48,655 nt of DNA from Patescibacteria group bacterium. GTDB lineage: Bacteria; Patescibacteriota; Minisyncoccia; UBA6257; HR35. The stretch covers positions 1-48,655 of the forward strand of contig PSMS01000001.1 in assembly GCA_040290225.1 (NCBI GenBank), read 5' to 3'. A program made the position numbers and the translations under genes. Every line of letters begins with the position of its first letter. Positions within the stretch are counted from its first letter, which is position 1. Below are positions 4,856-38,425 of this stretch, piece by piece. The notes under the pieces were generated by a model that was not told the origin of the DNA, made no database searches, and was given only the letters and a program-made list of their open reading frames with translations.

Positions 4856-7300
4856 ATGGAAATTTTAGAAAAAATCAAAAAATTATCAGAAAAAAACCTT
4901 GAAGAACTATTTAAAGAATTAAATTTTAGCTTTGATGGCTTAAGCGAAAAAGAAGTAGAAAAAAGATTAAAAATTTATGGAAAAAATATTATTGAAAGTT
5001 ATCAAATTCAGTTTTTAGAAATTTTTAAAAGAAATTTTTTTAATTTTTTCAATCTTCTTTTACTATTTTCAATTTTAATTTCTTTTATTTTAGAGAGAGG
5101 ATTAGAAACTTTTTTTATATTTTTATTTTTTATTTTCTCTTTAATTGTAGGCGTTTATCAAGATTATAAATCAAATGATCTTTTAAGAAAGCTTTTAAAA
5201 TTTTTTAAAAAGTATTCTTTGGTTAAAAGAAACGGAAATTGGGAAAAAATTGAAAGCGAATTTATTGTGCCTGGTGACTATATTAAAATAAAAAGCGGTG
5301 AACAGGTACCCGCTGATATAAGAATTATTAAAGCTGAAAATGTTTTAGTTGATGAATCAATTTTAACTGGAGAAAGTGAACCTATAACTAAAACCGAAAA
5401 AATTATTAAAGAATTTTCTAATATCCTTTTTTCTGGAACTTATTTATTAAAAGGAGAAGCTGAAGGAATTGTTATTTTAACAGGAAAAGAAAGTTATTTA
5501 GGAAATTTGGCTAAAGGAACAATTGAAATAAAAAAAGAAACCGCTTATGAAAAAATTTTAGATGATTTTGCTAAAAAAATTACTTATTTAGGATTCTTTT
5601 TAGGAATTTTGATTGTCTTTTTAAATTTTTTTAAGCCTCAACCAATTCCTTTAAAAGAAATTTTAATTTTTATAATTGTTTTAATCGTTGCTATTGTACC
5701 CGAGTTTTTACCAGCAATGACAGTTCTAACTTTAAGTCTTGCTGCTTTCAGGTTATCAAAAAAAGGAGGATTAATAAAAAGACTTTCAGCAATAGAAGAT
5801 TTGGGATCAGTTGAAATTTTATGTACTGATAAAACTGGAACGATTACTACCAATGAACTAAAATTAAATAAAATTATTTCTGAAAATGAAAAAGATTTTA
5901 TTAAATATTTCTTATTGGATTATTATTTTTTAAAAGATTTAACACCTTACGAAAAAGCAATTTTAGAAAAATATGGTTTACCTAATTATGATGAGTTTGA
6001 ATTAATAGAAAATTTGCCTTTTGATCCAATTTTAAGAATAGAAAAATTAATTGTTAAAGAAAAAAATATTAATCAAACTTTAGAAATAATAAAAGGAGCT
6101 CCTGAAGAAATAATAAAAATTTGTTTTCCAAACGGAAATAAAGAGAAATTAGAAGAATTTGAAAAAGAAGATAAAAGTGGTTTTAGAACCTTAGCCCTTG
6201 CTTTAAAAAAAGAAAATGATTTTATTTATTTAGGTTTAGCTTCTTTTGAAGATCCACTAAAAGAAAGTTCTTTTGAGGCCATAAATTTAGCTAAAAAATT
6301 AAATTTAGAAATAAAAATTTTAACAGGAGATAGTCCGTTTGTAGCTAAAAAAGTAGCTTTAGAACTTGGATTAATAAAAGAAAATGATGATGTAATTTTA
6401 GGAGAAAAATTAAGAAATTTGGAAAAAGAAAAATTAAAAGAGATCATAAAAAATAATAAAGTTTTTGCCAGGGTTTTGCCTGAAGATAAATTAAAAATAA
6501 TTGAAATCTTACAAGAAGAAAAATTTGTTGCTTTTTTAGGAGAAGGTATTAATGATGCTTTAGCTTTAAAAAAAGTTAATGTTGCTTTGGTTGTTGATTC
6601 AGCTTCAGATATTACTAAACAAGAGGCTGATATTGTTTTGCTGAAAAAAGATCTAAAAACAATTGTTGATACTATTTATGAAGGAAGAAAATCGATAGAA
6701 AATATAGGAAAATACATAAAACATACAATGAGTGATAATTTTGGTAATGTCTTTTCTGTTTCTCTTTTAACTCTTTATTTACCTTTTGTTCCTTTATTAC
6801 CTATCCAAATTCTTTTAACTAATTTTTTAACTGATATTCCTTTAATCTCTTTTGCTAATGATAATGTAGAAACAAAGGAAATTAAAAAACCTGTTAAATT
6901 TTCCAATAGAGAATTGATTATTCTTCTTTTAGGTTTAGGATTAGTTGCTGGTTTAAGTAATATTTTGGGCTATTTATTAGTAAAAAACGAATCTCCTGAA
7001 ATAATAAGAACAACAATTTTTACAATTACTACTTTTACAGGACTTTTAGTTTCTTATTCAATCAGAACAAAAAGTTTTTTCTTAAAATCGAAACCATCTA
7101 AAAGTTTTTTTATTTTTACTTTAATGGGTTTTGTTTTAGCTTTTTTATTTTTAAATTTATCTTATTTCCAAAAAATTTTTGGTTTTGTTAATTTACCACC
7201 AACTATTTTATTAAAAACTTCATTTATCTTAATTTTCTTTATTCTTTTTACAGAAGTTTTTAAAATTTATTTCTACAAAAAATATCCCCAATCAATTTAA
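4856..7300 (+). CDS. Cation-transporting P-type ATPase (P2/P3-like, Mg2+/Ca2+-type)
   Basis: LTGESEP actuator motif, CTDKTGTITTN phosphorylation site, PEFLPAMTV in M4, ILTGDS, GEGINDALAL hinge and multiple TM helices. Confidence 0.88.
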   Translation: MEILEKIKKLSEKNLEELFKELNFSFDGLSEKEVEKRLKIYGKNIIESYQIQFLEIFKRNFFNFFNLLLLFSILISFILERGLETFFIFLFFIFSLIVGVYQDYKSNDLLRKLLKFFKKYSLVKRNGNWEKIESEFIVPGDYIKIKSGEQVPADIRIIKAENVLVDESILTGESEPITKTEKIIKEFSNILFSGTYLLKGEAEGIVILTGKESYLGNLAKGTIEIKKETAYEKILDDFAKKITYLGFFLGILIVFLNFFKPQPIPLKEILIFIIVLIVAIVPEFLPAMTVLTLSLAAFRLSKKGGLIKRLSAIEDLGSVEILCTDKTGTITTNELKLNKIISENEKDFIKYFLLDYYFLKDLTPYEKAILEKYGLPNYDEFELIENLPFDPILRIEKLIVKEKNINQTLEIIKGAPEEIIKICFPNGNKEKLEEFEKEDKSGFRTLALALKKENDFIYLGLASFEDPLKESSFEAINLAKKLNLEIKILTGDSPFVAKKVALELGLIKENDDVILGEKLRNLEKEKLKEIIKNNKVFARVLPEDKLKIIEILQEEKFVAFLGEGINDALALKKVNVALVVDSASDITKQEADIVLLKKDLKTIVDTIYEGRKSIENIGKYIKHTMSDNFGNVFSVSLLTLYLPFVPLLPIQILLTNFLTDIPLISFANDNVETKEIKKPVKFSNRELIILLLGLGLVAGLSNILGYLLVKNESPEIIRTTIFTITTFTGLLVSYSIRTKSFFLKSKPSKSFFIFTLMGFVLAFLFLNLSYFQKIFGFVNLPPTILLKTSFILIFFILFTEVFKIYFYKKYPQSI

Positions 7301-8118
7301 ATTACTTTTTTAGATTCTAAAAGTTTAAAAAAGTTTTCAAATAATTTAGCTACTAAAATTGGACCGGTTCCACCAGGTGTTGGAGTAATTAAAGAAGCTT
7401 TGTTTTTTAGTTTTTCGAAATTAATATCCCCATAAATATTTTTTTCTTCAAAATAATAACCAAAGTCTATTAAAATAGCATTTTCTTTACAATCATTAAT
7501 CAAATTGGCTTTTCCGACTCCACTTACAATTATGTCAGCTTCTTTTAAAAATTCATTCAAATTTGTATGAGAATTAGCGATAATAATTGTTGATTTATTA
7601 TTGGCAAAATAATGAACAAGCGGTTTACCAATTAATCTTCCATAACCAACAATTAAAACTTTTTTTCCTTCAAAATTTAAAAAAAATCTTTTTTTCAAAA
7701 AATCAACAACCTCAACAGCTGGTGGTCTAATTACATAAGTATCAGTATAATATTTTCCTAAAAGCCCAGAAGATAAACAATCAATATCTTTTTTAGGAGG
7801 AATAGAATTAAGAAGATATTGAACAGGAAATTTTTCTGGTAAAGGAAGTTGAACAATTCCTCCTTGAATTGTTTTTGATTTAATTACCTGATGAATATAT
7901 TTTCTTATTTTCTTTTTTGTTAAATTTTCTGGAATTTTGTAAATTCTAAAATCTATATTCAATTTCTCAGCAAATTTTTGTTTAACCTTTAAAAAACTTT
8001 CTTTCTCTTTATCTTCACCAATTAAAAAAGCAGCTATTTTTAACTCTCCAAAATTTTTTCTTTTTTCTTTTAAATCTTCTAAAATTTCCTCAGCTAATTT
8101 ATTTCCTTCAACAATCAT
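7297..8118 (-). CDS. folD: Bifunctional methylenetetrahydrofolate dehydrogenase/methenyl-THF cyclohydrolase
   Basis: GGIVQLPLP, KDIDC, VGYGRLIGKPL and PTPGGTGPIL. Confidence 0.88.
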   Translation of the reverse strand: MIVEGNKLAEEILEDLKEKRKNFGELKIAAFLIGEDKEKESFLKVKQKFAEKLNIDFRIYKIPENLTKKKIRKYIHQVIKSKTIQGGIVQLPLPEKFPVQYLLNSIPPKKDIDCLSSGLLGKYYTDTYVIRPPAVEVVDFLKKRFFLNFEGKKVLIVGYGRLIGKPLVHYFANNKSTIIIANSHTNLNEFLKEADIIVSGVGKANLINDCKENAILIDFGYYFEEKNIYGDINFEKLKNKASLITPTPGGTGPILVAKLFENFFKLLESKKVI

Positions 8119-8122
8119 TAGT

Positions 8123-10972
8123 TTAACCTTTTATGACTCCTATTGGAACCAATTTAACTATTTTTTTAGCAATACCAATTTGATGAACAACTTCGACAAC
8201 TTCACTAACATCTTTATAAGCAACTGGAGCTTCTTCCGCTAATCCTGACATTGAACCCGCAGCCACCGAAATTCCTCTTGCCTCTAATTCTTTTTTCAAT
8301 TCACTTCCTTTTATTTTCTTTTTAGCTTCTGTTCTTGACATCATTCTTCCAGCACCATGGGGCGAAGAACCAAAACTAATTTCCATAGCTTTTTCTTGTC
8401 CAATTAAAACATAACTTGAAGTTCCCATTGATCCAGGAATTAATGTTGGTTGACCAATTTCTTTATATCTTGAAACTAATTCAGGATGATTTTTAGGAAA
8501 ACTTCTTGTTGCTCCTTTTCGATGAACTAATAATTTTTTCTTATCATATTCTTCAATTTTAACAATATTATGAGCAACATCATAAATTTGTCTCAATTCA
8601 ATATCTCTGCCAAAAACTTTTTTAAAAGCTTTTCTAATTTCATAAACAATAAGTTGTCTATTGGCAAAAGCAAAATTAGCTGCAGCTTTCATTGCCTCAA
8701 AATAATCTTGACCTTCAGGAGAATTAAAATCAAAATAAGCCAATTCCCGATCAACCAAATCAACACCTTTTCTGTCTAAATATCTTAAGGCTTCTCGAAT
8801 ATAATCAGTTGCCACCTGATGACCTAAACCACGAGAACCACAATGAATTAAAACACAAACTTTACCTTTTTCTAAATCCAATTTTTTAGCAATTTCTTCA
8901 TCAAAAATTTCTTGAACTCTTTGAATTTCAACAAAATGATTACCAGCACCAATTGTTCCTAATTGATCTCTTCCTCTATCTTTGGCATTTTTTGAAACTT
9001 TATCTGGATTAGCTCCTTCTAATTTTCCATTTGATTCAGTTGCTTCAATATCTTCTTTTGTTGCGTAACCAATCTCAAAAAGCCACTTTGCTCCTTCGCT
9101 TAAAACTTTATTCATTTCATCATTATTCAATTTCCAAAATCCTCCTTCACCTACTCCTGAAGGAACTTGTTTATAAATTTCTTCTGTTAATTTAGGAATT
9201 TTATCTTTAATCTCATCATAAAAGAATGGAGAAACTAATAATCGAACACCACAATTAGAAACAACAAAATTATCAGCAATAAAATTATGATCTTTGTCAT
9301 TTAAGCTTAAATCATAAACATAACCTTGATAATTTTCTTTTTCAATTTTTTCTATTTCATCAATAATAAAGCCTTCATTACCAAAAGAATATTTTTTTAC
9401 AAACTCATCAAATTTCAAAGAATTTTTCATAATTTTGGACTGAGCATAAATTTCCCATATCGATTTTTCACTCAATTCAGGCTGGTAATTTTTCAATAGA
9501 ACTTTTGCTAGAGCATTTTGGCTATAAAAAATTTTCGATTTCAATCTTAGGTTTTCTATTTCTTTCTTTTTATATTTAAGATAAGCCAAGGCCAAATTAG
9601 CCAATTTTCTTTTTTCTTGATGATACTCAAAATTAATTAAATTTAAAAATCTCTCTAAATTATTTAAATTCAGCTTTATTTGAAAGTTCAAACTTATTGT
9701 TTTATCTTCATCTTCAGAATTTTTAAAAATTTTTATTTTTGAAACTTCTATTTCAAATTCTTTTAATAAACTTTTTATTTCTTGAAAAAATTTTATTGCC
9801 TCTTTTAATTTTGTTTTATCAATCTTGAGTCTTAAAGTTACTAAACCGCTTTTGTTTTTATTATGAATTCTAATCGAGTTTAATTTTGCACCAAAAAATG
9901 AAGCTAAAAATAGTCTTTTTTGCCATAAAGGAGAGAATTTTAAAAATTTAAGTAAAGAAATTGATTTTTGATTTTTATTTTCTAAAGGATAACCAAGTAC
10001 AACTAAAAGAATTAAAAAAGGAAAACAAAAAACTCTTAAATAATTATTTTTAAGAATACTTTTAATTCCAATTTTTTCTAAATCTTCTTTTATTAACTTC
10101 AAATTTTCTTTTTCTCCCCAAATTGTTAAATTCGATATTTTTTTATTTTTATTTAAAACAATATTACCGTTGGCAAGAGTATAACCAAAAATTTTAATAA
10201 GATAAGAAAATTCTTCTGAATCAATATATAATGGCAAAAGATGTATTTTTTTTAAAAATTCAATTAGGTGAAAAATTGTATTTTCTTTATCATTCAATCC
10301 CAATTGTTTTACTTTTTCGATAAATTCCTTTTCATCGATTATTTTTATATGTTTTGGTTTTTCATATTTTATCCCTTGAAATGGATAAATAACAACTTTT
10401 TCTCCAATCAAAAGATTTTTTGCCTCTTTCATACCATTAATCGTTAAAACCGGATGATCTTCTGTCAGTTTTAGGGTATAGCCAAGTTTGGTGGTAATTT
10501 TCAACAAATAATTATTTTCTTTTCTTTTTAAAAACAACATAATTTTTGAAATTTTTAATTTTTTTCTCTTTAAAGAAATTGAAATAACTTTTTTATTTTC
10601 CAAAATATCTTTAATTTCAATATAAGTTCCGAATGGTAAACTAATTTTACTTTCTGGCGGAAGACAATTAATATCGTAACCGACAGCACCAGGAGAAATT
10701 ATCCCATCTTTAATATCAATCGCCATAATTCCGCCAACTAACGCACCATATCCTTCATGGGCATCAGGCATTGCTAAGGCATATTTATAAACTCCAGGCA
10801 GGGTTGTCATATTAACCAATTGCCACAAACTTCTGTCTTTGAACAATTCATCCAACATCTTTTCAGAAGCAAAAATACGAGCAGGAACTCTCATATCTTC
10901 TCGAAAACTTTTGGGAATTTCCCAAATATAATCTGAAATTTTTATTAAATCTTCTTTTTTAGGTATTTTCAT
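8123..10972 (-). CDS. rtcB: RNA-splicing ligase RtcB interrupted by an in-frame intein (precursor 949 aa; spliced product 478 aa)
   Basis: Exteins: AMPDAHEGYG...GAVGYDIN | CGVRLL...GAGNHFVE...HCGSRGLGHQ...PGSMGTSSY...SPHGAGR. The intervening 471 aa are unrelated to RtcB and carry intein blocks. Confidence 0.92.
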   Translation of the reverse strand: MKIPKKEDLIKISDYIWEIPKSFREDMRVPARIFASEKMLDELFKDRSLWQLVNMTTLPGVYKYALAMPDAHEGYGALVGGIMAIDIKDGIISPGAVGYDINCLPPESKISLPFGTYIEIKDILENKKVISISLKRKKLKISKIMLFLKRKENNYLLKITTKLGYTLKLTEDHPVLTINGMKEAKNLLIGEKVVIYPFQGIKYEKPKHIKIIDEKEFIEKVKQLGLNDKENTIFHLIEFLKKIHLLPLYIDSEEFSYLIKIFGYTLANGNIVLNKNKKISNLTIWGEKENLKLIKEDLEKIGIKSILKNNYLRVFCFPFLILLVVLGYPLENKNQKSISLLKFLKFSPLWQKRLFLASFFGAKLNSIRIHNKNKSGLVTLRLKIDKTKLKEAIKFFQEIKSLLKEFEIEVSKIKIFKNSEDEDKTISLNFQIKLNLNNLERFLNLINFEYHQEKRKLANLALAYLKYKKKEIENLRLKSKIFYSQNALAKVLLKNYQPELSEKSIWEIYAQSKIMKNSLKFDEFVKKYSFGNEGFIIDEIEKIEKENYQGYVYDLSLNDKDHNFIADNFVVSNCGVRLLVSPFFYDEIKDKIPKLTEEIYKQVPSGVGEGGFWKLNNDEMNKVLSEGAKWLFEIGYATKEDIEATESNGKLEGANPDKVSKNAKDRGRDQLGTIGAGNHFVEIQRVQEIFDEEIAKKLDLEKGKVCVLIHCGSRGLGHQVATDYIREALRYLDRKGVDLVDRELAYFDFNSPEGQDYFEAMKAAANFAFANRQLIVYEIRKAFKKVFGRDIELRQIYDVAHNIVKIEEYDKKKLLVHRKGATRSFPKNHPELVSRYKEIGQPTLIPGSMGTSSYVLIGQEKAMEISFGSSPHGAGRMMSRTEAKKKIKGSELKKELEARGISVAAGSMSGLAEEAPVAYKDVSEVVEVVHQIGIAKKIVKLVPIGVIKG
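9254..10666 (-). mobile_element. Intein (471 aa) with a degenerate LAGLIDADG-type homing-endonuclease domain, inserted in the RtcB DIN/CGVR active-site motif
   Basis: Starts with Cys (CLPPESKISL; TGT at 10666-10664). Block B is LKLTEDHPVLT. LAGLIDADG-like segments are LIKIFGYTLANGNI and LFLASFFGAKLNS. Blocks F/G are YVYDLSLNDKDHNFIADNFVVSN, followed by the +1 Cys (TGT at 9253-9251). Confidence 0.88.
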
Positions 10973-10988
10973 TCTAAATAATATTATA

Positions 10989-11639
10989 CTATTTTTGGAG
11001 TTCTTCTTGAATGCTTTTTTCTAAATCTTCAAATCTTTTAATCTCTATTAATTTTCCATTAACAAAAAAACTTGGAGTTCCTCTAAGCCCTAAGGCTAAA
11101 GATTCGTTTCTTTGTTCTAAAATTTTTTTAGTTGTTGTTTCAGAATTAAAATCTTCTTCAAATTTTTTAATATCTAAATCAAGTTCTTTAGCGTAACTAA
11201 TAAACCTTTCTTTGGGATTTTTGTCGTTTTTCCAATCATCTTGTCTTTCAAAAAGCATATCATGCATTTGCCAAAATTTATTTTGATTACCAGCAGCTTC
11301 AGCTGCTTTAGCTGCTAAAATGGCGTTAGAATGAATTTCAATTAAAGGAAAATGTCTATAAACAAATAAAATTTCATCATTATATTTTTTCTTTAAATCT
11401 TTAATAATTGGGAAAAATGCTCGACAAGCAGGACATTGAAAATCGCTGTATTCAATAACAATTACTTTAGCCTTTGTTTTATCTCCTAAAAACCAATCAT
11501 TTTCTCTTAAGCTAGTAGTTATTTCTTTTTTAGAAGAAAAACGAAAACTATTTAAAAAACCTGTGAAAATAAGAGAAAAAACGACTATCCCAACAATAAC
11601 AAAAAGCAAAATGGTGTTTTGATTTTTCTTTTTTGACAT
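10989..11639 (-). CDS. Membrane-anchored DsbA-like thiol:disulfide oxidoreductase (thioredoxin fold)
   Basis: N-terminal TM (ILLFVIVGIVVFSLIFTGF), CPAC active site (DFQCPACRAF) and GTPSFFVNG. Confidence 0.8.
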   Translation of the reverse strand: MSKKKNQNTILLFVIVGIVVFSLIFTGFLNSFRFSSKKEITTSLRENDWFLGDKTKAKVIVIEYSDFQCPACRAFFPIIKDLKKKYNDEILFVYRHFPLIEIHSNAILAAKAAEAAGNQNKFWQMHDMLFERQDDWKNDKNPKERFISYAKELDLDIKKFEEDFNSETTTKKILEQRNESLALGLRGTPSFFVNGKLIEIKRFEDLEKSIQEELQK

Positions 11640-11705
11640 TTTTTTATTATAAACTAAAATTAAGAAAAAAACAGTTTTGAAAAATTCTTTCTTAAAATAA
11701 AAATT

Positions 11706-12956
11706 ATGGATAGGGTTTTATGGAAAATAATTGAAAAAGAAATAAAAAGACAAGAAGAAACAGTTGAACTGATACCTTCAGAAAATTTTGTTGATTTAGA
11801 AACCTTATTTATTGTAGGTTCTCCTTTAATGAATAAATACGCTGAGGGTTATCCAGGAAAAAGATATTATCCAGGAAATAAATTTATTGATGAAATAGAA
11901 ATTTTAGCCCAGGAAAGAGCCTTAAAAGCTTTTAAACTAAACAAAGAAGAATGGAGTGTGAATGTTCAACCTTATTCTGGTTCGCCAGCAAATTTGGCAG
12001 TTTATTTAAGTTTAATTAATCCTGGAGAAACAATTATGGGATTAAATTTGTTTCACGGAGGTCATTTAACTCATGGACATAAAGTAAGTTATACAGGGAA
12101 ATTATTTAATTCAATTCAATATGGTATCAATCCTGAAAAAGAAGAAATTGATTATGAAGAACTTGAAAGATTAGCCGAAAAACATAAACCAAGAATAATA
12201 ATTTCAGGAACAACTGCTTATCCAAAAAAAATTGACTTTGAAAGAATTTATCAAATTGCTAAAAAAATTAATGCTTATCATGTTGCTGATATTGCTCATA
12301 TTGCTGGTTTAGTTATTGCTAATTTACATCCTTCACCTTTCCCTTTTGCTGATGTAATAACAATGACAACTCACAAAACTCTTAAAGGACCAAGAGGAGC
12401 TGTTATTTTTATGAAAAAAGAATTAGAAGAAAAAATAAACAAATCTGTTTTTCCAGGACTTCAGGGTGGACCCCATATGCAGACAATTGCTGGTATTGCT
12501 TATGCTTTTGGTCAAGCTTTAAAAAAAGATTTTATTAATTATCAAAAACAAATTATCAAAAATTCACAAAAATTAGCTGAAGAACTTAAAAAAAGAGGTT
12601 TTAAACTTTATACTAATGGAACAGGCAATCATTTAATGATGATTGATCTTAGACCATTAAATTTAGATGGAAAAACTGCAGAATCTTTATTGGAAAAAGC
12701 AAACATAATCGCTAATAGAAACTCATTACCTCAAGATACTTCTCCTTTTAATCCTTCAGGAATAAGATTAGGAACACCAGCTGTTACTAGTAGAAAAATG
12801 AAAGAAAAAGAAATGGTTATTATAGCAAGTTGGCTTGAAAGAATTTTAATAAAAAAAGAAAAACCAGAAAAAATTAAAAAAGAAGTTATTAATTTAACAA
12901 AAAGATTTCCTTTGCCCTATATTAAGTGGCTAAAAAAAATAAAAAATTTAATCTAA
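11706..12956 (+). CDS. glyA: Serine hydroxymethyltransferase
   Basis: [30 protein letters not shown] (PLP lysine) and a 416-aa length. Confidence 0.94.
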
Positions 12957-38027: not shown

Positions 38028-38425
38028 AAAAATTTGAATTTTTATCTCATACGGCTGATCAGAAATTTAAGATTTATGGAAAAAATTTAAAAGAATTGAT
38101 TATTAATTCGCTTTTAGCTTTAAAAAGTTTTTTCAAACCAAAATTAACAAAAAGTAAAATAGAAAAAGAAATAAAAATAAAAAACGAAAAAACTGAAATT
38201 CTTTTAATAGATTTTCTTTCAGAAGTTTTAGCCCAAACTTATATTGAAAAAGCAATTTTTACTGATTTTCAAGAAAAAAACTTGAATTCAAAATTAATTG
38301 AAGGAAAAATTTTAGGTTTTTATTTTATCAAACTTACTAAAGACATTAAAGCAATTACTTATCATCAAGCTAAAATTGAAAAAATTAATAATTTATTTAC
38401 TTTCGAATTTATCGTCGATATTTAA
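38024..38425 (+). CDS. Archease (RtcB activator family)
   Basis: FEFLSHTADQKFKIYGKNLKEL, KAITYHQAKIE, and the C-terminal FIVDI. These match the archease hallmarks (HTAD, KAITYH, xDI end). ATGA overlap with serS. Confidence 0.85.
   Translation: MKKFEFLSHTADQKFKIYGKNLKELIINSLLALKSFFKPKLTKSKIEKEIKIKNEKTEILLIDFLSEVLAQTYIEKAIFTDFQEKNLNSKLIEGKILGFYFIKLTKDIKAITYHQAKIEKINNLFTFEFIVDI

Follow-up and report, generated by a model that had tools for sequence, protein, structure and literature searches.

A putative class-1 intein with an apparently decayed homing endonuclease at the active-site cysteine of RtcB in a Patescibacteria group bacterium

A 48,655-nucleotide stretch of DNA from a Patescibacteria group bacterium (assembly GCA_040290225.1, contig PSMS01000001.1; the whole stretch is called the window below) carries a gene for the ligase RtcB in which the active-site motif of the protein is split by 471 residues. 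This arrangement raises the question of what the insert is, how a working ligase could arise from such a gene, and what has kept the insert in place. A first-pass annotation made from the sequence had described the insert as an intein located exactly at the active-site Cys of the DINCGVR motif, with apparently dead LAGLIDADG motifs, and had suggested an old, fixed element that possibly acts as a post-translational switch. Our analysis indicates, with a probability that we put at roughly 90%, that the insert is an ordinary class-1 intein at the standard RtcB site whose endonuclease is degenerate and which has reached a late stage of the homing cycle.

Position and identity of the insert

In the list of open reading frames (ORFs), the RtcB precursor is encoded by one long ORF of 949 codons plus stop (8123..10972, minus strand, as are all parts of the gene described below), and the insert holds no other ORF of at least 100 residues on either strand. 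A search of the whole 482-kb genome found this to be the single rtcB locus. The product matches PF01139, the profile of the 3'-phosphate/5'-OH RNA ligase RtcB, with 543 bits (cut-off, 27). Residues 103 to 573 of the precursor correspond exactly to window positions 9254-10666 and are inserted between Asn102 and Cys574. When they were removed in silico, a 478-residue protein with the contiguous sequence GAVGYDIN-CGVRLLV was obtained, which restores the GYDIN-CGVRLL motif and confirms the boundaries that had been proposed for the insert. The insert begins with CLPPES and ends in HNFIADNFVVSN; its C-terminal end, directly before Cys574, reads ...DHNFIADNFVVSN. The initial Cys, a TxxH block B within LTEDH, and the Cys that follows the insert were all found as first described.

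The position of the insert in the folded ligase was deduced from an alignment by phmmer with Pyrococcus horikoshii RtcB (PhoRtcB, PDB 1uc2). Residues 11-103 of the query aligned with Pho residues 7-98 and residues 573-949 with Pho residues 97-481, and therefore both Cys103 and Cys574 fall on PhoRtcB Cys98. This residue bridges Mn1 and Mn2, and the C98A mutant is dead at every step (PMC9745838). In P. horikoshii RtcB, the splice junction also lies at Cys98 (PMC4150793). This report and the 1uc2 alignment are the basis for equating the two insertion sites, and they bear out the placement of the insert exactly at the active-site Cys. The intein of P. horikoshii RtcB (PH1602) shares with the query the host protein and the insertion point (Asn97/Cys98 of DINCGVR), and in both cases the +1 nucleophile becomes the Mn1/Mn2-bridging Cys; the two are likened here by site alone, and their hosts are a hyperthermophilic archaeon and a bacterium of the candidate phyla radiation (CPR), respectively. 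RtcB is among the commonest intein hosts, with 27 inteins in bacteria and 10 in archaea (PMC4760082). The arrangement in the window is thus not unusual: it occupies the canonical RtcB intein site and is already curated as an NCBIfam family.

The catalytic residues of the ligase are all intact. They comprise D100, C574, N678/H679, H710, H801, and H872, which are equivalent to D95, C98, N202/H203, H234, H329, and H404 of the Pho enzyme, and hence include the metal ligands (Asp, Cys, and three His) and the His that accepts guanosine monophosphate (Pho H404). The N-extein (residues 1-102; 10667..10972) ends with GYDIN and contributes Asp100, the counterpart of the metal M2 ligand Asp95 in the 1uc2 alignment. 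The C-extein (residues 574-949; 8126..9253) starts with Cys+1 (9251-9253), the counterpart of Cys98.

Profile searches identified the insert as an intein. It matched Intein_splicing (PF14890) with 80.6 bits (cut-off, 35.8; E 1.4e-22), and this domain extends to the last residue of the insert. The profiles for the N-terminal and C-terminal intein regions, TIGR01445 (46.4 bits; cut-off, 24.5) and TIGR01443 (21.9 bits; cut-off, 15.6), were also matched above their cut-offs, and the insert alone matched positions 95-578 of NF038162 (RtcB_rel_intein, "intein-containing RtcB family protein") with an E of 3e-83. The N-terminal Hint part (intein residues 1-104; 10355..10666) matches the DnaB mini-intein 1mi8 and retains the conserved columns. 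It comprises Cys1 (Cys103; 10664-10666) and block B (T68-E-D-H71; 10454-10465). The C-terminal Hint part (residues 431-471; 9254..9376) contains blocks F and G, which read VYDLSLNDKDHNFIADNFVVSN, with Ser as the penultimate and Asn as the last residue.

For comparison, 94 inteins from the same RtcB site (siblings) were extracted and aligned, and columns of the Hint regions were taken as conserved if they showed at least 85% conservation among them. The query retains 35 of 36 such columns. The residues C1, T68, D70, H71, D452, H460, N461, and N471 are invariant or nearly so in the siblings (T68 in 90/94; C1, H71, D452, H460, N461, and N471 in all 94). C1, T68, H71, D452, H460, N471, and C+1 are all present in the query. 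The residue before the terminal Asn is Ser572 (intein S470), and the usual His is absent. The penultimate His (G:6) is an assisting residue for Asn cyclisation that is usual but not obligatory. Other inteins have been documented to splice without it (Chen et al. 2000, an entry in the reference list of PMC4031507). As Ser is found at this position in 91 of the 94 siblings, the missing His is a trait of the lineage and not a sign of decay. The whole junction NFVVSN/CGVRL (the slash marks the insertion point here and below) is nearly universal among the siblings, in agreement with the junction residues first proposed for the query.

Taken together, Cys1, the TxxH motif, the C-terminal Asn followed by Cys+1, the profile and fold matches, the restored host motif, and the intein-free alleles described below characterize the insert, at the level of sequence comparison, as a class-1 intein. 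The conserved Hint residues under purifying selection, the intact ligase, and the retention of the single rtcB together with an archease gene suggest that splicing occurs. In the literature we came across no experimental paper on the splicing of the ...VVSN lineage of RtcB inteins, although no search was aimed specifically at that lineage.

Erosion of the nested endonuclease

The middle of the intein (residues 105-430, approximate borders; 9377..10354) is a LAGLIDADG homing-endonuclease region that appears to be decayed. The siblings have canonical motifs, K-I-M-G-Y-x-F-G-D-G for the first and R-L-F-L-A-S-F-F-G-A-E-L for the second. In the query, motif 1 reads KIFGYTLANG (10166..10195) at the end of a predicted helix (151-166), with the catalytic Asp replaced by Asn (N166) and the preceding Gly by Ala. 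Motif 2 reads LFLASFFGAKL (9881..9913) at the end of a second predicted helix (247-261), with the catalytic Glu replaced by Lys (K261). The siblings have Asp at the first catalytic position in 89/94 cases, Glu at the second in 86/94, and both in 84/94; the Gly of motif 1 is found in 92/94. The Asn and Lys noted in the first-pass annotation thus are departures from the residues of the family.

The erosion extends beyond the motifs. The query keeps 40 of 61 conserved endonuclease columns and loses 21 (34%), the family median being 97% kept. Its endonuclease has lost 36 residues through deletions and has no insertion, and the loss includes a conserved basic hairpin of ~20 residues. In a relative-rate comparison, the identity of the endonuclease to an outgroup was 0.322 for the query versus 0.407-0.436 for sister inteins; the corresponding value for the Hint domain was 0.457, inside the sister range of 0.451-0.478. 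With respect to this endonuclease-specific deficit, the query ranks first of the 94 siblings. No Pfam LAGLIDADG family matched the query at an E of up to 1, whereas 18 of 28 siblings matched LAGLIDADG_3 (PF14528). When only the middle part of the insert was used, Pfam and NCBIfam scans returned NF038162 and no LAGLIDADG family. These results support the view that both LAGLIDADG catalytic acids have been replaced, that erosion is specific to this domain, and that the endonuclease is probably catalytically dead.

A profile search with the intein alignment against the PDB recovered Hint domains only and left the endonuclease unmatched, and therefore a structural search was needed to match its fold. 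An AlphaFold model of the intein, built on the sibling alignment, reached a mean predicted local distance difference test score (pLDDT) of 86.6 and a predicted template modelling score (pTM) of 0.87. It predicts two LAGLIDADG helices in a pseudo-dimeric alpha-beta fold, so that the combined intein and LAGLIDADG architecture is still expected for the query. The best PDB matches in Foldseek were PI-PkoII, TliVMA, PI-PfuI, PhoVMA, and PI-SceI (E 1e-16 to 1e-10). Further matches were the free-standing LAGLIDADG enzymes I-SceI and I-LtrI, mini-inteins (root-mean-square deviation, 1.5-2 A), and two non-nucleolytic LAGLIDADG proteins, WhiA and the bI3 maturase.

PI-PkoII, PI-PfuI, and PI-SceI, which are among these best structural matches, resemble the query in that a double-motif LAGLIDADG domain interrupts the Hint domain. 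They differ from it in keeping both catalytic acids and cutting DNA, whereas the query has Asn and Lys at these positions. With respect to its state of decay, the closest experimentally studied analogue is the PhoVMA intein (PDB 7qst; E 4.6e-14 with the query model), which is likewise large and whose endonuclease has lost the catalytic Asp residues, shows degenerative mutations, and has suffered a deletion, with the fold kept. The PhoVMA endonuclease is inactive in vitro, its architecture and splicing are retained, and it has been assigned to the degeneration stage of the homing cycle (PMC8966425). It resides in another host gene, that of V-ATPase A, and at another site, and its inactivity is experimental, whereas that of the query is deduced from the residues present.

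Strains, relatives and gene context

At 90% identity, the query clusters with four further sequences from three other assemblies, whose DNA is 99.1-99.4% identical to the window. All four strains, represented by separate assemblies, carry the intein in all parts covered. The same Asn and Lys are present in both strain sequences that cover the LAGLIDADG motifs (P0124 and P0122), and the reading frame of the endonuclease is intact across the strains. Among the four strains, the variable codons of the endonuclease comprised 17 nonsynonymous and 4 synonymous ones, with a pairwise ratio of nonsynonymous to synonymous polymorphism (pN/pS) of 0.5-1.25. The Hint domain had 3 nonsynonymous and 6 synonymous ones (pN/pS 0-0.18), with zero variable codons in its C-terminal part, and the exteins had 6 and 5 (pN/pS mostly 0.2-0.4). 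Fisher's exact test for the endonuclease versus the rest of the gene gave p = 0.025. The endonuclease evolves nearly neutrally and the splicing domain and the ligase are constrained; the small strain counts agree in this respect with the deep comparison, and both speak for the decay that had been proposed.

In one strain, the gene is annotated as two ORFs (P0122 and P0123), which could have indicated a natural split intein or a broken gene. This was rejected, as the break is a run of scaffold Ns: at the locus L115 (GCA_040290265.1 PSMT01000014.1, 2366-2500), an N gap inside the intein caused two RtcB fragments to be called, which is an annotation artefact. When the spliced extein was used for a search, no RtcB lacking the intein was found to be more than 82% identical to the query, and therefore no intein-free allele of the species is on record.

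The same family or order supplied 41 genomes, 26 of them with rtcB, and intein-free alleles were found among these. In 15 relatives, the GYDIN/CGVRL site is uninterrupted at the DNA level, and eight genomes of the set, the query counted, have an intein at this site (site a), some of them with further insertions. The C-exteins of the relatives are 82-86% identical to that of the query, with values of up to 86% for intein-free and 83-86% for intein-bearing ones; the inteins themselves are 46-51% identical to the query intein. In a tree of the C-exteins, the intein occurs in scattered places: the most parsimonious history takes five changes, no fewer than two are imposed by well-supported branches, and intein presence was not clustered beyond shuffled labels. 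Genus g10 holds both states. This scatter indicates repeated gain and loss, as expected of a homing intein. The description "old, fixed" therefore applies to the species-level lineage, with the intein in 4/4 strains, and does not extend across the taxonomic family, where the distribution is patchy and several gains or losses have occurred.

In 15 of the 41 genomes, no full rtcB match was obtained (G005, G007, G022, G025-G027, G030, and G033-G040 are the relatives listed); 14 genomes gave no match at all, and G012 gave a marginal Hint-like one (E 8e-4). The ligase is thus dispensable in this group. In G021, the assembly breaks at the intein site, with contig C26 ending at extein residue 99 (L112) and C27 starting at residue 102 (L008). 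The break could reflect a mixed population with and without the intein or an AT-rich intein that was not assembled.

The intein belongs to a large family. A search with the insert returned 220 proteins, nearly all of them RtcB precursors of ~970-1000 or ~1500 residues, and a scan of one genome per species placed relatives of the intein in at least 340 species genomes. The taxa include Patescibacteria (CPR), Omnitrophota, Planctomycetes, Chloroflexota, Clostridia, and Atribacteria and, within the archaea, DPANN archaea, Methanosarcinales, and Desulfurococcales. The complete precursor matches NF038162 over nearly its full length (query 9-949 versus model 2-961; 972.4 bits).

Homologous inteins, 37-38% identical and with the same ...HNFIANNFVVSN end, were also seen at two more Cys sites within 26 residues of this RtcB region, namely at site b, HEGYG(F)/C-VGG (P0003/L110 in G001, P0002, and P0007), and at site a', ISPG(M)/C-GYDIN (P0052, P0053, P0076, and P0080). 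Some RtcB proteins carry two or three insertions and reach a total of ~1500 residues. This suggests that one intein lineage jumped ectopically between nearby Cys codons. Two relatives (L109 in G006:C11 and L104 in G014:C22) contain an in-frame insert of 140-170 residues in a variable RtcB loop, between KIEEY and KLIVHRKGATR, at a position that corresponds to residues ~236-240 of the query C-extein (window ~8540-8550). It was considered as a mini-intein at a third site and rejected, as it matches PF13366 (GxxExxY, PD-(D/E)xK-like) and has neither Hint blocks nor an Rfam intron. It contains no stop codons, and one such protein is named "GxxExxY protein" by NCBI; a nested nuclease domain and a mobile element are both conceivable.

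The GC content of the intein is 22.1% compared to 32.5% for the exteins, the window mean being 26.6%. We do not take this low value as a sign of recent horizontal transfer; it is not diagnostic, and relaxed constraint in an AT-rich genome would explain it equally well. An Rfam scan of window positions 7000-12500 matched no family. The rtcB gene is flanked by a gene for a DsbA-like thioredoxin (10989-11639) and by folD (7297-8118), all on the minus strand with spacers of 16 and 4 nucleotides, respectively, and the same order is present in three strain contigs. Co-transcription of rtcB with these two functionally unrelated genes is likely. Archease is the usual activator of RtcB. Its gene (38033..38422, plus strand; a 137-aa frame; PF01951, 94.6 bits, above the cut-off) lies ~27 kb away from rtcB; in some CPR genomes the two are adjacent, which is not the case here.

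Splicing model, alternatives and meaning

We propose that the gene is translated as a 949-residue precursor whose active-site loop is interrupted by 471 residues between D-I-N and C-G-V-R, and which is probably inactive before splicing. Cys103 would undergo an N-S acyl shift, Cys574 would attack the resulting thioester, Asn573 would cyclise and thereby release the intein, and an S-N shift would form the peptide bond. The product would be a 478-residue RtcB in which the former +1 nucleophile serves as a metal ligand, and which would work with the archease encoded elsewhere in the window. In the homing-cycle model, inteins first invade and become fixed, their endonuclease then degenerates, and they are eventually lost or reduced to a mini-intein (PMC1654191, PMC8966425). 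In the present case, the intein would have arrived by homing and now be fixed in the species-level lineage, with an endonuclease that has lost its function and is eroding, and the host's need for an intact RtcB active site would be the only reason why splicing persists.

Several observations weigh against this reading. The NF038162 score of the query (972.4 bits) lies below the curated cut-off of 1150 and is the lowest of eight proteins tested; siblings scored 1079-1226 bits, and those found with the query's intein scored 1175-1226, above the cut-off. The low score is, however, consistent with an eroded and shortened endonuclease (471 residues in the query intein versus a median of ~505). The number of polymorphic codons is low (41 in all), and the comparison of the endonuclease with the extein alone gave no significant difference (p = 0.21). 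As the sibling alignment drives the AlphaFold model, the latter cannot show folding of the query's own eroded domain. The penultimate Ser could slow the C-terminal step, although its family-wide conservation argues that Ser works. Finally, it is comparison of sequences that supports protein splicing.

With regard to the post-translational switch, redox state or metal binding at Cys1 and Cys+1 would control splicing and hence the activation of RtcB, and the Ser would slow the default reaction. Other inteins are known in which splicing is conditional on redox or zinc. References on zinc inhibition appear in the reference list of PMC4031507, and PhoRtcB Cys98, the counterpart of the Mn-bridging +1 Cys, is oxidation-sensitive (PMC9745838). 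Conservation of the penultimate Ser in 91/94 siblings and retention of the intein in 4/4 strains despite an apparently dead endonuclease would also fit such a role. However, retention after decay of the endonuclease is an ordinary prediction of the homing cycle, because precise deletion is rare, and the 15 empty sites in close relatives, even within one genus, indicate that the intein is dispensable, as these relatives live with an intein-free rtcB. Moreover, identical junction residues are shared by hundreds of siblings that spread selfishly and have intact endonucleases, and no regulatory feature particular to this copy was found. Nothing specific thus speaks for a switch, and we regard it as quite unlikely. 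The same low expectation applies to the idea that the whole RtcB intein lineage is conditional and gated by redox or metal, for which its invariant Cys1 and Cys+1, the conserved Ser, and the Mn-bridging +1 Cys could be cited. If it were true, lineages with a dead endonuclease would possess a stress-responsive switch for RNA repair or ligation.

Two further explanations concern the fate of the domains themselves. The endonuclease might still be active despite Asn and Lys, or might have acquired a DNA- or RNA-binding role like that of a maturase or WhiA; the LAGLIDADG fold predicted with high confidence, the frame intact in all strains, and the Foldseek matches to WhiA and the bI3 maturase could be taken in this sense. 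The frame has to stay open in any case, since a stop codon in it would be fatal to RtcB. The two metal-binding acids have been lost, the conserved basic hairpin is deleted, 34% of the conserved columns are lost, and a pN/pS of ~1 among the strains carries no signature of a selected new function; in addition, PhoVMA, which is devoid of the same Asp residues, is experimentally inactive (PMC8966425). We therefore consider an active or repurposed endonuclease very improbable. Even less credible is the assumption that the insert no longer splices and that rtcB is a dying gene with a non-splicing insertion. The gene is dispensable in the order, with 15/41 related genomes lacking it, and the penultimate His is absent. 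Yet purifying selection acts on the exteins (pN/pS 0.2-0.4) and more strongly on the Hint domain, all catalytic residues of the ligase and 35/36 conserved Hint columns are kept, the C-extein shares 82-86% identity with its counterparts in relatives, a penultimate Ser is what the family normally has, and the archease is retained.

The ordinary intein with a degenerate endonuclease thus remains the reading that we favour, and it has consequences for annotation: the gene encodes an intein-containing RtcB precursor with a mature product of 478 residues, and neither an unusually long RtcB nor a fusion protein. Beyond annotation the case matters little. The sibling set, with its occurrence in at least 340 genomes, its penultimate Ser, and its three Cys sites within 26 RtcB residues, may interest intein specialists. 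The element itself is nothing out of the ordinary, a late-stage representative of an RtcB intein family that is large and has been catalogued before. It illustrates the degeneration stage cleanly and in numbers for an ultra-small CPR genome: purifying selection acts on the splicing domain, the endonuclease nested in it evolves neutrally and is shrinking, and the element is fixed in the species and patchy among genera.

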